64,000 nucleotides of DNA from a virus. The position numbers are program-made. Where the stretch lies: the IMG/VR virus record IMGVR_UViG_3300006139_000001. One strand, written 5' to 3'. Within the stretch, counting starts at the first letter, position 1, and the number at the start of each line of letters is the position of its first letter. Below, in pieces: positions 12,001 through 21,000 of this stretch.

Positions 12001-15000
12001 TCAGTAGTTAGGATAGACACCTTATCTTTGCAAGTCTTACCCTTTCCAGTACCATCGTCAGCAACCAAGTTGACTGTATGCTCTACAATGTTATCCATAC
12101 CAACAACCGCAGCCAGTTCGTTCAGGAACTCACCGTTGCAGAATTCACGGACACCACTGGTAACATAGTCGCCGGTATCACCGAAACGCATCTCCTTAAC
12201 AAAATCCTTTGCAATAATAGCCGTAGTTTCAGTGCCATGACCAAGCACGATATACTCACGGTTTCCAAACTTTACAACAGAACCAGGCTTTACACTGCCA
12301 AGAGTAGTCTTGTTGTCCTCGGCAAGCAAAATAGCAAAGCTGCCATCCTCAGACTGATTTACAGTAACCTTAATGTTGGGTACATTGTTGATAACCTTGA
12401 TTTCCATTTTAAAACCTCTTTCTTATATGTAGTGTTAAATCAGTTGTTTTTCTGATTTACTTTGTGATTATAGTATAGCACACTTTTGCCGCTTTGTCAA
12501 TACTTTTTCGGATTTAATCCTAAATTTTTTTAAGAGTACAAATGATACTTTTTACTGATAGAATGTGCAACATCGTCTCTAAGCGGACAAAACCAAATTC
12601 CAGTTAAGGTAGTACCATCATCTTCTTCTGGTGTAAGTTCTGTCAAACACTTATCGTAAATCAAACCATAGTGTTCGCCTTCGACCAAACCAAGTTCATC
12701 AGCCATAGTTTTAGCCTTTAACAAATGATTTTTATTTCTTGCTTCACAAATTGTCTTTGTAAAAATACCATTTATATATTCATCAAAAATCTCTTTGTCG
12801 ATAACACCGTGGATTTCATAGCCAGCATAATCATCTAAGACTTTTGCATTTCGGCGCAACCCTCTTGTCCAATATGCTTCTGCACAATGAGCTACCTGTG
12901 ATGCTAACTTTCCAGCACTCATATGTAAATCTTTTCTCATTATAAATAATCGTCTCATAGTTTGTTCCTCAATACAAAATCCACCAATAGTCATATAACC
13001 TTTTATACTGGCTATGTTTCAATGAAATCTTAGCTCTGCGGACTTTTCTATTCGCAATACGCCTCAAATACTTAGTATACCTAGGAGTATTAGAGGAATA
13101 AAAGCGGATATATCTTTTCTTTTTCTCATCATACCATACACCAGCACAACAACTATTTTTGGTTTTATCATATAACTTCTTTAATCTACATTCATCCTCT
13201 CTACTCCTACGATAGCTCATATTTTTTACTCTCCTATAAAAACCAAGTCATCAATATAACTTCTCTGCTCTCCCTTAAAAATAGGGATATTATCATCAAT
13301 GACCCATTTTGTCCTATCGCTTCCCTCTACAAATTTGCGAATACAGCAGCTACCACGCTTTAAAGTAACGGGAAAATCATTCCAGTTAATTCCCTTTTCA
13401 AGCATAAGCATATCTTGAATTTGGTTACAAGATTTCTTATGTAGAGAAGATTGTGAGAAATTGGCATGACCAACCATTTCAATAGAATTTCTTGTAGCAT
13501 CATTCTGTCGCCAAAGAATGCAGTTTGTTACTTCTTCTTTCGGAATGTTAAACACTCTTGCATCAAACATAGCGCCTTTTGAAAGTGCCACATTATAATT
13601 TCCATATTGTGCTTCATTCTCAACAGTGTCAATATACATAGTAAATCCCTGGTCGGTTACTTCACTAACTGTATGTTCATCACAAAACTCATCAACATTC
13701 TGTGAAAAGAACTTATTAAATGCCATCGTTGCCATACTTGCAGCAATGCTTGTACATTTCTGAATGTTATAGTCAAACCATGAGCAAGTGTCAACTTTCT
13801 TATAATCAACAAGTACAAGAGTAATCTCGTCGCTTTGCTGATAACCTAATACACAACCCTGGATATTTTCACAAAGATATTTCATAGTTTGCTGCATTGA
13901 CTTGACAAGCACATCATCAAATGGTTTCTTGAAACCCCTTGTAAAAGTGTGGAATGCTTTACCATCAACACGGATAATTACTGGTGTCCTCGGCGTTAAG
14001 TATGTACGAGTCACATACTCATACTTTTTCATTCTATCTCCAAGTGCGTCTTTTACCATATTCTCACCACCTTATAGATTTTCGAGACTTTCAATAAACT
14101 CTTTCATAAACTGAGTTTTGTCATTTGCACGTTTAACTTCTTCGTCATAAGCCTTTTTTGCTCTTTCCACTTCACTTTCAAGATATTCGACGTACTTCTT
14201 AATATACTCCTGCACGGCTTCATCACTATCATTAAACGGCGTATTAATGATTTCTTGATAGTACGCAAACATCTTGTCTGAATTTACACACATATCAATT
14301 TGTTCAAGCGCAAACTTCTTAATCCCTTCGTGGTTCTTAGTGGGAGGAACCCAGCCAGAAACTTGCCCCCGAACCTTGGTATATCGCTCGTTAATTGCTG
14401 TCATATTCGCAATGGTTCGTTTTGCATCCTTAACACGCATATCATAATCGGAACGCATACGGCGCTTTGCTACCTCAAAAGAAATATTTCGTTCTTCCTC
14501 CAGACGCTTAACGGCACTCTCATAGCGATTTTTATAATATCCGTCTGGTTCAAAAGTAATAGGAGTAGGAACAGACAAAGGTTCATCACGAATTTCCATT
14601 GCTACGCCAAAGGCACGTGAACATAGTAAAAGAAATTCTTTGCCAGTAGTAATATTCCCATCCTCAATAAAAGCAGTATATCCAGTAGGCATTTTCACTT
14701 CTCCTTCTTCTTAATTCTTATATTCAAAGCACGGCATAAGCTGTAGTTTAAAAAGATTTTTAATGTGCATCTGGTCAATCTTCTCCTTAACCGCTACATC
14801 TTCACAAATACCAGTTCTGATATAACGATTTAATACCTTATAAGTAAAACCAAGATTATCTTCATCTGTTTTTCCGCAAAGACCATCAGAAGGAGTCTTA
14901 TGTACAAGCTCATCGGGCAAACCACAAGCCTCGCCAATAGCGATAACCTCATCGCTCGTTAAGTTTGCAAGAGGACTAAAATCGCCAACAGAATCACCCC

Positions 15001-18000: not shown

Positions 18001-21000
18001 GAATATATGGCATTACAAGGTGAACAAAAGGAACACCATTGTTCTGAAGGTGACGAGCAATGAACATCAAAGCAACCATTTCTTCATTGCTTTCATAATG
18101 CCAGGTGATTGTTGCTTCTCTAAGCCTATCAAAACCACCATCGGTCATTTGCGGGTTAATCCGTAATGTGCCATCAGGGAACTTATTGATTTCAAGCACT
18201 TCGTTATCCAGTTTAATCATATCTTATTCTCCAATCACATCAATCTGGCACATTTTCATAGTAGTAATTGCCGCAGCATGACTTTCAGGCGTAACACCAG
18301 CACAACAAGAAGCATCAACTACAATATCAATCTCAGGATAATATGATTTCAGCAACAGAGCATTTGAAATAACACAAATATCCGTACACAGACCAACAAG
18401 TTCAATGTAGTCATAACCATATTCCAGAATGCTCTTGGGAAGCGTCGTACTGCCAAAAGTAAACTTATTCATAACAGTGTAGTTATCAACTTCGGCAAGA
18501 GCGGCAAGAACATCGGAATTGATTTTGTGACCATCAGTTCCTTCAATACAATGTACAACCGGAAGATGCTTTCCTTCTTTGGTTTCCATGTAGTTGTCAA
18601 AATGTGTGTCTCTTGTGCAAATAATATCCCCATCCCACGTCTTGATTTTTTCAACAAGATTTGGAATCATATTGACTGCTTCATTCGTGCCAAGAGCACC
18701 ATCTACAAAATCGTTCTGTACATCAACAATAATCAAAAGTTTCTTCATCGTTCTCATTCTCCTTGATATTAGATTTAGTAGTAACTCATTTACTATAGTT
18801 ATTATAGCGCATCTTGCGCTGTTTGTCAATAGTTTTTCTGATTTAATATTATATCTTGTTTTAATTTTCTTCTTTCACTTCGATTCAGGTATCTCTTTGC
18901 CCAATGAATCCATTTATTAGAAATGCAATAAATTCCTTTATGGTACAACCTATTTTGCACAGATGCACTTTTGTTTTCTACTTTCTTAAATGCCGCTTTT
19001 GACATCTGTTTCACTCCATTTTTTAATAATAAAAGACGAGTTTTATCATCTAAAATATGAATTGCTCTTTGTTATGAAATATTCGTTATCCATCCACCGA
19101 ATGTATATAACCTGTGGCAAATTATAAATTCGTGGCGTTATGCACCAGAAGAAGTGTTTTACCTTCTTGCTTATGTGGTCAAACATCGGATGACTCTCTT
19201 GACCGGTGTTGCAACCGGCGGCGAATACAATGTTTCAATTCGTGTTACCGTAACCGTCTTAACGCCGAATCTTGTCTGCACTAGGATATTGCTGCCAACC
19301 GCAATGTTATCCACCTTTACTTTCTTTGGCATTCGCCAAACATATTCTTTGCCATTGCCACCATGACATCCGAACACATAAATTGTCTTGTTCACATAAT
19401 TTTGGTTTGTAGAAATAACTTCCACATCTTCTACACCGTTTTCTATCAGTACAAGATAGCCAATATATCCGTCAAGAAGATAGCCATTCTTATTCACCAC
19501 AATTTCCCTATCAATAGTCCCATGCTTCTTAAAGTACTCTCTGCACTCTTGAAGTTTTCTATCTGAAGGATTCGCAGTTTTGAAATTCTTTTTAATTTTA
19601 ATATCTGAAATCTTCATGTTTACCTCCTACTCAAAAAGTTCATTTAGCTTTCTCGGCTGATATTCCCTTGTGCTTAGTTTGCCAATCGACGCTTTTATAT
19701 CTGCAATCATTGAAGAATTAACTTTGCATTCGCCAAGCTGAGTTAAAATCTGCAATTCATCTTTGACCTTGCGACGCTTTTTCAATCGCCCTCTCAGCAT
19801 ATTAAAAGCAAGCCAGCCTTGATAGGCATTAAATTGCCCGAATTCTATGTAATGGTTAATATCACTAATCTCTTTATCAACATCGCTCAATGCAGCAATC
19901 AGCGTATCTTTGCGCTGCTCCGCATTCTGAATGAATCCAGCAAAGTTATCAATATCAACCGACAGACTAGAAAGCTGGTTTTCTTCAACTGGCTCATTTC
20001 CAATTCGTTTTGCTACATCATCCTTTGACCTAACCACCATATTAATTATATTTGTGGTCACTTCTTCTGGTTTAGGAATGACAGCATCTTCGATTTCGAT
20101 AATTCTGTATCTATTCCTTAAATTTTTACTAATACAGTTTACAAGTACATTTGACGCTTTCCCTCGTTGTTCCCAAACATCGCCAAGTACTTTATTCTTT
20201 ACAGGAACATAGTTACCAGAGGCATCTCTGCGAAGATACAAGCCATGCCCATCCGTAATCATAAATCGTGACAATCCCGTCGCTCCCTTCATTTCTTTTT
20301 CTGATTTAATTCTTGTATCTTAAATCAAAGGCTGCTTTCACAGCCTATGATTATCAGCATTAAATAAACGGTCTTAGAAGTTTCTTAATATAAGAAACGT
20401 TTTCAGCAACAACGCCGTATTCTTTTGCGTATTTCATTAGCTCTTGCGCATCAGCACTATTACGAACAGATGTTACAAGTTCTTTTGTTCTTTCCTCTCC
20501 GGCTCTACTTACTATATAATCATGGAAACCTAGAAGATAAATGATGCGATAATTAATGTCAACACCATATTTCTTTCTTATATTCATTGTGATTTTGCGA
20601 GTAAGGATTGCACCAACATCTACAAGAGACTTCTCCTGAAATGCTTCAACCTCTTTCGCTCTAATCGCAATCTTAAAATATCCGTCTTGATAAGGTACAG
20701 CGGCATAACTTCCACGCAAAGTGCCAATTTCATTTAAGCTGTGAATATACTCCAACAACTCAAAACATCTATCGGAAAGATGGATTGTTCTGCCTGGAAG
20801 CCTAACCTCATGTGTCTTGAAGTTAATAGCATCTTCCTTCAGCAAAACTATTTCTTGTGCTTCTGCAAATCCATTATAGAAAAGCAAAATCAGGCATTCC
20901 AAATACTTTCCATAATCATAATTGGTATCTTCGTAATCTTGTTTTATTTTGGAAAGCACTCTTTCGATAATATCATATGTGAACGCCGTTTTAGACTCAG

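Follow-up and report, generated by a model that had tools for sequence, protein, structure and literature searches.

A gut-phage operon that most likely rebuilds NAD+ through nicotinic acid: a candidate deamidated variant of the NARP1 pathway

We analysed a 64,000-nucleotide stretch (hereafter the window) of the IMG/VR phage record IMGVR_UViG_3300006139_000001, and within it a four-gene operon for nicotinamide adenine dinucleotide (NAD+) metabolism at 14711-18829 on the minus strand. The record has a length of 160,718 bp and a CheckV completeness of 100%. It belongs to a gut phage, and the gene sequences indicate that the operon most likely rebuilds NAD+ via nicotinic acid and not via nicotinamide. 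The operon encodes homologues of Adps and Namat, the two enzymes of NAD+ reconstitution pathway 1 (NARP1), between a nicotinamidase (PncA) and an NAD synthetase (NadE). With moderate confidence, we read it as a nicotinate-type (deamidated) NARP1 variant in which nicotinic acid adenine dinucleotide (NaAD) would be the intermediate. This reading is drawn from the replacement of the nicotinamide-recognition residues in the Namat-type transferase, from the confinement of group-specific changes to its base pocket and from the linkage of the altered transferase to PncA and NadE.

Few bacterial strategies against phages are as common as the depletion of NAD+, to which NARP1 is the principal phage response known. 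NARP1 (Adps and Namat) has been described in the phages SPbetaL1, Bas63 and ICP1 and also in Paenibacillus foliorum (preprint 10.1101/2024.02.11.579819; PMC12774641; PMC13586617). If our reading is true, the operon would hold a new enzyme activity, the formation of NaAD directly from ADP-ribose pyrophosphate (ADPR-PP), and a two-residue pocket change would have re-aimed a salvage enzyme, which constitutes a directly testable mutational switch. The reading would also account for the presence of PncA and NadE beside an apparent NARP1 in hundreds of uncultured gut-phage genomes.

Operon organization

Four co-directional open reading frames (ORFs) are arranged head to tail behind a promoter-like site. 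In the following list, ADPR is ADP-ribose and PPi is inorganic pyrophosphate.

18801..18829, minus strand: promoter-like site TTGACA-17 nt-TATAAT, 12/12 match to the sigma-70 consensus, about 50 nt 5' of the pncA ATG
18224..18748, minus strand: pncA, metal-dependent nicotinamidase-type hydrolase of the isochorismatase fold, 174 residues (Pfam Isochorismatase, 75.6 bits)
17351..18220, minus strand: Adps-type Prs-like enzyme, 289 residues (phrog_619, 227 bits); predicted reaction ADPR + ATP -> ADPR-PP + AMP
15889..17364, minus strand: Namat-type Nampt-like transferase, 491 residues (NAPRTase and NAMPT_N; phrog_448, 533 bits); predicted reaction nicotinate + ADPR-PP -> NaAD + PPi
15470..15889, minus strand: NADAR domain, N-terminal part of a fusion (Pfam NADAR, 96.1 bits versus a cut-off of 35.1, residues 8-136; TIGR02464, 75.8 versus 73.7)
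14711..15469, minus strand: NH3-dependent single-domain NadE, C-terminal part of the fusion (Pfam NAD_synthase, 166 bits; TIGR00552, 160.4 versus a cut-off of 63.65); predicted reaction NaAD + ATP + NH3 -> NAD+

The start codons of pncA (ATG 18748) and of the transferase gene (ATG 17364) were set by alignment with relatives. The junctions consist of a 3-nt gap (pncA/adps), a 14-nt overlap (adps/namat) and a 1-nt overlap in TGATG (namat/NADAR-nadE), and each of the three junction genes is preceded by a GGAG-type ribosome-binding site. The four enzyme classes are intact and translationally coupled, with one consensus promoter; the site at 18801..18829 is the sole perfect promoter match within 12800-19800. 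No terminator-like site was detected on the minus strand from the operon down to 12800, so the transcript may extend beyond the four genes.

The original prediction, made from the sequence of the window, described four genes under one promoter, with no adenylyltransferase for nicotinamide mononucleotide (NMN) or nicotinic acid mononucleotide (NaMN) among them. The ORFs, the domain matches and the 12/12 promoter confirm the first statement, and the second extends to the entire 160,718-bp record, in which neither cytidylyltransferase-family genes (PF01467; NMNAT/NadD) nor NUDIX genes were found. The Namat-like gene is the sole PF04095 match in the phage, which has no PncB-type gene besides. PF01467 is also absent from 30 of 39 related phage records (19 of 24 when only records with a completeness of 90% or more are counted), and the matches that do occur in related phages are mostly distant from the cassette. 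By comparison, 94% of the phages with a Nampt of the KVP40 type, which uses phosphoribosyl pyrophosphate (PRPP), carry their own Nmnat (preprint 10.1101/2024.02.11.579819).

A megablast search with the operon against 50,697 phage records returned no match. At the protein level, relatives with more than 60% identity were found only in MT835544, an unannotated gut contig.

Base pocket of the transferase

By its sequence, the transferase is assigned to Namat and not to Nampt. It scores 424 bits against the SPbetaL1 Namat structures 9w5x and 9w5w, 320 bits against a third entry (9ke8) and 156 bits against human Nampt, and it shares 47% identity with SPbetaL1 Namat. The closest NCBIfam model is named 'nicotinate phosphoribosyltransferase' (427 bits).

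In the structures of Namat with nicotinamide and with NAD+, Asp215 forms a hydrogen bond to nicotinamide in a pocket that also contains Phe189, Arg192, Ala242, Arg306, Asp13' and Tyr15', and in the SPbetaL1 enzyme the D215A mutation reduces nicotinamide-dependent NAD+ synthesis 8.1-fold (PMC12774641). The corresponding residue of human Nampt, Asp219, defines substrate specificity (PMC7096376). When the window enzyme was aligned with SPbetaL1 Namat, the GTDT motif that holds the amide-binding Asp was found to read NTAT. The nicotinamide-recognition pair Asp215/Ala242 is replaced by Ala213/Ser240, as it is in every close relative, and the remaining base, ribose and phosphate contacts of SPbetaL1 Namat are kept in the alignment. 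A D219S mutant of human Nampt reportedly accepts nicotinic acid. Three sites in the transferase gene were located from the alignments.

16726..16728, minus strand: Ala213 codon, site of the Asp that forms the hydrogen bond to the nicotinamide amide (Asp215 in SPbetaL1 Namat, Asp219 in human Nampt)
16645..16647, minus strand: Ser240 codon, site of the SPbetaL1 Namat pocket residue Ala242
16183..16209, minus strand: nine-residue insertion IEEDGILKP in the selectivity-clamp helix motif, GSFSFQC-[insert]-FTRD

The pocket was surveyed in 150 representatives at 50% identity, drawn from 1.84 billion proteins. Covariation was seen between positions 215 and 242 (SPbetaL1 numbering), with Asp or Glu accompanied by Ala in 98 representatives and Ala, Ser or Val accompanied by Ser in 50; the three exceptions are one Ala with Gly, one Asp with Gly and one sequence that is unaligned at 215. 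An unbiased ranking of the alignment columns by residue-set overlap was performed on 44 Ala/Ser-type versus 98 Asp-type representatives. The most group-specific columns were 215, 187, 242, 213, 240, 304, 271, 239 and 185, all of which lie in or beside segments of the nicotinamide pocket; the group overlap was 0.00 at column 215, the most specific, and 0.01 at column 242. Residues D13, Y15, F189, R192, R306, D308, G360, D361, G390, S391, T398, R399 and D400 are unchanged in both groups, across which R40 is kept as Arg or Lys and the aromatic residue 392 as Phe or Tyr. R40, residue 392, T398, R399, D400, D361, G360 and D308 represent the contacts of the ribose, of the two phosphates and of most of the adenine clamp, which show no difference in kind between the groups. 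Position 213 is Lys in 20 of the 44 clade members and Asn in the window enzyme. Because the group-specific columns are confined to the base pocket, the base site appears to have been rebuilt and the ADPR-PP side left untouched save for the clamp helix. As an annotation rule, we offer Asp215/Ala242 versus Ala-or-Ser215/Ser242.

The selectivity clamp of Namat consists of the Arg40 loop and a helix with the motif GS-X-phi-X-phi-X-phi-TRD, in which X3 and X7 are aromatic (PMC12774641). In the window enzyme R38, G379-S380, F381 (X3), F383 (X5) and T396-R397-D398 are present, X7 (Y396) corresponds to Cys385, and the nine additional residues precede F395-TRD. The adenine-clamp residues R38, F381 and T396-R397-D398 (window numbering) are conserved throughout the clade. 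The length of the insert varies among relatives and its flanks are fixed, a pattern that suggests a surface loop.

Many Namat homologues (P0003, P0019, P0053, P0070 and others, and that at L348:7878-10475) have lengths of 570-1100 residues and match in two or three pieces. Their breaks fall near query residues 240-330 and suggest large insertions, possibly inteins or homing-endonuclease-like elements.

Linkage to PncA and NadE, and phylogeny

Loci were collected from scans of viral contigs, of genomes and of further sets, and were searched with hidden Markov models built from the cassette proteins. The linkage count was restricted to loci with at least 3.5 kb on either side of the transferase gene. 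Both PncA and NadE are present at 180 of 184 Ala/Ser-type loci. Neither is encoded at any of the 41 Asp/Glu-type loci (0/41), 40 of which have Adps. The short ICP1 and PVA23/KP13 loci, which fall outside the 3.5-kb count, also have neither PncA nor NadE. The cassette partner proteins are only 34-70% identical yet still linked, and the linkage with PncA and NadE holds down to approximately 40% identity.

At the Ala/Ser-type loci the gene order is PncA-Adps-Namat-NadE in 167 cases and Adps-Namat-NadE-PncA in 38, and two other orders occur once each. Shuffled orders are PncA-Namat-NadE-Adps in L331, a 363-kb viral contig with a Ser-type transferase, and Adps-PncA-Namat-NadE in L335.

Trees were calculated with FastTree (146 sequences) and IQ-TREE (75 sequences), both rooted on T4-like phage Nampt. 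The Ala/Ser/Val transferases form one clade, with a support of 99 in both trees, nested among the Asp-type Namats, and within this clade Ala and Ser have interchanged several times. The pathway of the original prediction implies that the transferase is no longer built for nicotinamide, and a phylogeny against Adps and Namat had been proposed as a check. The first point agrees with the changes of D215 to Ala and A242 to Ser and with the location of the group-specific columns around the base pocket only; as to the second, both rooted trees place the window transferase inside the Namat radiation.

P0139 and P0083 are the deepest Ala/Ser members; contig scans with P0139 recovered distant Asp-type loci only. 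The sister Asp-type protein P0104 gave no match when scanned against viral and metagenome contigs. The 80 matches in the genome collection are mostly contigs binned into metagenome-assembled genomes of Lachnospiraceae, Ruminococcus and other Clostridia, which hints at the host range.

The Kolpuevirus 'frurule' had been considered a carrier of the four-gene cassette on the basis of its gene sizes and was rejected, as its Namat is of the Glu type, its Adps gene lies downstream of the transferase gene and it has neither PncA nor NadE. This cultured crAss-like Bacteroides phage (OQ198718.1; L276) and P0062 make up a small Namat lineage with Glu at position 215.

The Adps-type enzyme

The Prs-like protein shares 38% identity with the biochemically validated SPbetaL1 Adps (E = 1e-48), gives at most 53 bits against any solved phosphoribosyl pyrophosphate synthetase (PRPS) and misses the cut-off of every NCBIfam Prs model. 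SPbetaL1 Adps has been demonstrated to make ADPR-PP (preprint 10.1101/2024.02.11.579819), and the structure of ICP1 Adps identifies the pyrophosphate (PP) loop as the signature of the Adps family (PMC13586617). The PP loop is DDISSRGGTF in the window enzyme and DDLSSFGGTF in SPbetaL1 Adps, with the pattern DDI[CS]S.GGTF across the cassettes. The PP-loop motif of PRPS is DT.GT, where the Adps type has SS.GGT. Equivalents of ICP1 Adps F18, R87, H121, D161, K185, I194, D212 and D213 are conserved across 195 cassette sequences. By its PP loop, which in Adps is remodelled for the ATP donor, by the catalytic Lys185 and by the acceptor residues R87, H121, D161, D212 and D213, the Prs-like gene is assigned to the Adps type.

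PncA and the NADAR-NadE fusion

The best solved relative of PncA is the pyrazinamidase/nicotinamidase 1ILW from P. horikoshii (E = 6.7e-12). The catalytic residues D9, K95 and C125 and the metal ligands D47, H49 and H66 are invariant in 50 distinct cassette PncAs. The protein misses the cut-off of the NCBIfam PncA equivalog NF008623 (27.6 versus 174 bits), and the assignment as PncA therefore rests on these motifs and on context.

In the NadE part of the fusion no CN_hydrolase (glutaminase) domain was found. It has the SGGKDS P-loop, which does not vary among 55 cassette NadEs, and among solved structures it is closest to NadE of P. horikoshii (2E18, 130 bits). The closest subfamily is the archaeal-type single-domain NadE, of which the member assayed in PMC3376133 uses NaAD and not NaMN. 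NadE alone occurs in many unrelated phages, for example cyanophages and pelagiphages.

The NADAR domain shares 60% identity with the stand-alone NADAR/YbiA proteins of the Bacillus phages AR9 and PBS1. Clustering at 90% identity gives at least 60 protein clusters with the fusion architecture, and the NadE halves of the fusions are 75-80% identical to unfused NadE. Among the loci, an N-terminal NADAR-NadE fusion is present in the window operon and in L004, L176 and L179; a separate NADAR gene lies beside NadE in L066, L165, L168, L205 and L247, and L230 has one at another place in the locus. Three Asp-type NARP1 loci also have a NADAR gene nearby. NADAR thus recurs, fused, adjacent or more distant, as an accessory that moves within phage NAD+ modules.

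A chromosomal copy in a Clostridia isolate

In an isolate of Pseudoruminococcus massiliensis (NZ_OLMR01000003.1, L248:5632-11324) ordinary chromosomal genes surround the cassette, and NrtR comes after it. Its NadE is of the glutamine-dependent kind (CN_hydrolase and NAD_synthase). No further NAPRTase-family gene and no further true NadE were found in this genome, and a canonical Prs (390 bits) is present beside the Adps-like gene (107 bits). The most effective effector of NrtR is ADP-ribose (PMC2330246). The chromosomal copy with NrtR suggests a role in ordinary ADP-ribose recycling in some gut Clostridia. NAMPT_N was detected in one of 201 genomes sampled from the order, that of P. massiliensis itself, and the chromosomal copy looks sporadic.

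Proposed pathway and alternatives

Every substrate and product in the following pathway is predicted from the gene identities, residue changes, conservation and linkage described above. The pathway would start when a defence NADase splits NAD+ into ADP-ribose and nicotinamide. PncA would convert the nicotinamide to nicotinate and NH3, and the Adps-type enzyme would pyrophosphorylate ADP-ribose with ATP to give ADPR-PP. The remodelled Namat-type transferase, which no longer has the amide-binding Asp and carries a new Ser in its base pocket, would join nicotinate and ADPR-PP to form NaAD, and the NadE half of the fusion would amidate NaAD to NAD+. Since NaAD would be formed directly, an adenylyltransferase would not be needed. 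More speculatively, the fused NADAR domain may act as a feeder that frees ADP-ribose from ADP-ribosylated substrates.

The formation of NaAD from nicotinate and ADPR-PP would be a reaction for which we found no published description. Full-text searches of the literature on NARP1, Namat and Adps, and within the papers on NARP1, NARP3, aRES and RyR domains, turned up no nicotinate or NaAD route with PncA or NadE. Three reasons for a preference for nicotinate can be offered as speculation: released nicotinamide may already be turned over by PncA of the host, nicotinate, being charged, may stay in the cell better than nicotinamide, and defence NADases may act poorly on NaAD.

Several points weigh against this pathway. 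Validated Namat also makes NMN from PRPP in vitro (preprint 10.1101/2024.02.11.579819), so that the transferase could instead form NaMN from nicotinate and PRPP and leave the next step to host NadD. With the nine-residue insertion and the change of Y396 to Cys, the published clamp motif is not literally present. The D215A mutant of SPbetaL1 Namat retains residual nicotinamide use (PMC12774641), the P. massiliensis genome holds a NadD-like gene, and among the solved relatives of the NadE part the NMN synthetase of Francisella (3FIU) takes second place. Furthermore, the Ala/Ser transferases form a single clade, and the split of 180 versus 0 loci thus represents one origin with long retention and not a set of independent confirmations.

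The main alternative is a Preiss-Handler route through PRPP, in which the Prs-like enzyme would make PRPP, the transferase would make NaMN, host NadD would convert this to NaAD and the phage NadE would finish the synthesis. The altered base pocket and the linkage to PncA and NadE fit this route equally well. The PRPP activity that Namat enzymes keep in vitro, the name of the best NCBIfam model (427 bits) and the alteration of the clamp helix by the insertion also favour it, and in P. massiliensis, which has no PncB and a NadD-like gene, the transferase could simply replace PncB. However, the Prs-like enzyme is assigned to the Adps type by its 38% identity to a validated Adps, its scores below all Prs cut-offs and its SS.GGT loop, and the cassette-bearing bacterium keeps a separate canonical Prs. 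The clade-wide conservation of R38, F381 and T396-R397-D398 would be unexpected in an enzyme that no longer binds the AMP moiety of its donor. In addition, PRPP-using phages nearly always bring an Nmnat, which is missing here and from most of the related phages. We consider the PRPP route unlikely, though it is the chief competitor to the formation of NaAD from ADPR-PP.

It is distinctly improbable that the operon is an ordinary NARP1, making NAD+ from nicotinamide and ADPR-PP, with PncA and NadE as independent helpers that boost host Preiss-Handler salvage of nicotinamide lacking an ADP-ribose partner. The Adps and Namat homologues are both intact, the D215A Namat has residual activity with nicotinamide, and NadE is known as a lone gene in unrelated phages, all of which would suit such an arrangement. 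In contrast, the amide-binding Asp is missing from all 50 Ala/Ser/Val-type representatives, of which 49 have Ser and one has Gly at 242, and independent helpers would be expected at Asp-type loci too, none of which has PncA or NadE in our sample. PncA would also remove the substrate of an ordinary Namat, and the four genes stay linked through four gene orders.

Similarly improbable are a pocket that takes another base, or both nicotinate and nicotinamide, and a NadE that converts NaMN in the manner of the Francisella NMN synthetase. In favour of these readings, the pocket is enlarged by Ala or Ser at 215, the window enzyme has no obvious added positive charge (position 213 is Asn) and the Francisella enzyme ranks second among the solved relatives of NadE. 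Against them, nicotinate and NaAD are exactly the compounds that PncA and NadE flank, and NMN as a product would again require the adenylyltransferase that the phage does not have. In addition, archaeal-type NadE, the closest subfamily, uses NaAD and not NaMN (PMC3376133), and the bacterial copies fill the NadE slot with a standard glutamine-dependent NAD synthetase.

Comparison with known systems

The operon shares with NARP1 an adjacent Prs-like/Nampt-like pair (38% identical to Adps and 47% to Namat of SPbetaL1), the absence of an adenylyltransferase, the Adps PP loop with the catalytic Lys, and the ribose, phosphate and most adenine-clamp contacts of Namat. It differs from NARP1 in the changes of Asp215 to Ala and Ala242 to Ser and in the 9-residue clamp-helix insertion. 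PncA and NadE appear as obligatory partners here, whereas they are absent from the 41 full-flank Asp/Glu-type loci sampled, and the predicted transferase product is NaAD instead of NAD+.

The Preiss-Handler pathway is represented by the NrtR-regulated operon nrtR-pncA-pncB-nadD-nadE of C. acetobutylicum (PMC2330246). Likenesses to it are PncA in first and NadE in last position, the predicted intermediates nicotinate and NaAD, and the presence of NrtR with the bacterial copy of the cassette. Unlike that operon, the cassette has neither PncB nor NadD, and the order pncA-adps-namat-nadE puts Adps and Namat in the slot of PncB and NadD. The ribose-phosphate and AMP parts of the product would come from ADP-ribose and not from PRPP and ATP.

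With NARP2 and NARP3, the operon would share the phage-encoded restoration of NAD+ against NAD+-depleting defence. NARP2 (Nampt and Nmnat, Vibrio phage KVP40) works with PRPP and brings an adenylyltransferase of its own, and NARP3 (PnuC and NadR; PMC13464706) imports nicotinamide riboside; this phage has neither kind of gene. The N-terminal 140 residues of the fusion hold a full NADAR domain of the NADAR/YbiA family (PF08719), which, unlike the stand-alone NADAR of AR9 and PBS1, is fused to NadE within an NAD+ cassette. We regard it as an even question whether a nicotinate ADP-ribosyltransferase with PncA, Adps and NadE constitutes a fourth type of pathway by which phages reconstitute NAD+, one common among large gut phages, standing in for PncB and NadD next to NrtR in at least one Clostridia isolate and equipped with a NADAR feeder in this phage.

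Flanking genes and other features

Three genes follow the operon on the same strand.

14072-14698, minus strand: phrog_8905 protein, 208 residues, no Pfam match, 12 nt downstream of nadE
13226-14059, minus strand: Thg1-like tRNA-His guanylyltransferase (Pfam, 107 bits; phrog_4717, 307 bits)
12530-12994, minus strand: PTH2 peptidyl-tRNA hydrolase, downstream of the operon with no predicted terminator between

In a scan of approximately 250 loci, the phrog_8905 gene accompanied the cassette at one other locus only (L066) and the Thg1-like gene lay next to it in seven. As both are rarely kept with the cassette, they were left out of its parts. The Thg1-like and PTH2 genes may have a role in tRNA repair or counter-defence.

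A reverse transcriptase (RVT_1, 62 bits) lies between genes for a radical-SAM/SPASM protein and a DUF6273 protein at 9096-12407 on the minus strand; the arrangement raises the possibility of a diversity-generating retroelement or of a unit resembling a retron. An accessory region at 21437-26291, also on the minus strand, encodes a MazF/PemK-like toxin (69 bits), a tyrosine integrase-family protein and a TnpB-like protein (Cas12f1-like TNB domain). At approximately 43400-45000 both the GC skew and the gene strand flip, from minus before about 43.4 kb to plus after about 45 kb, which marks this region as the meeting point of two divergent transcription blocks.

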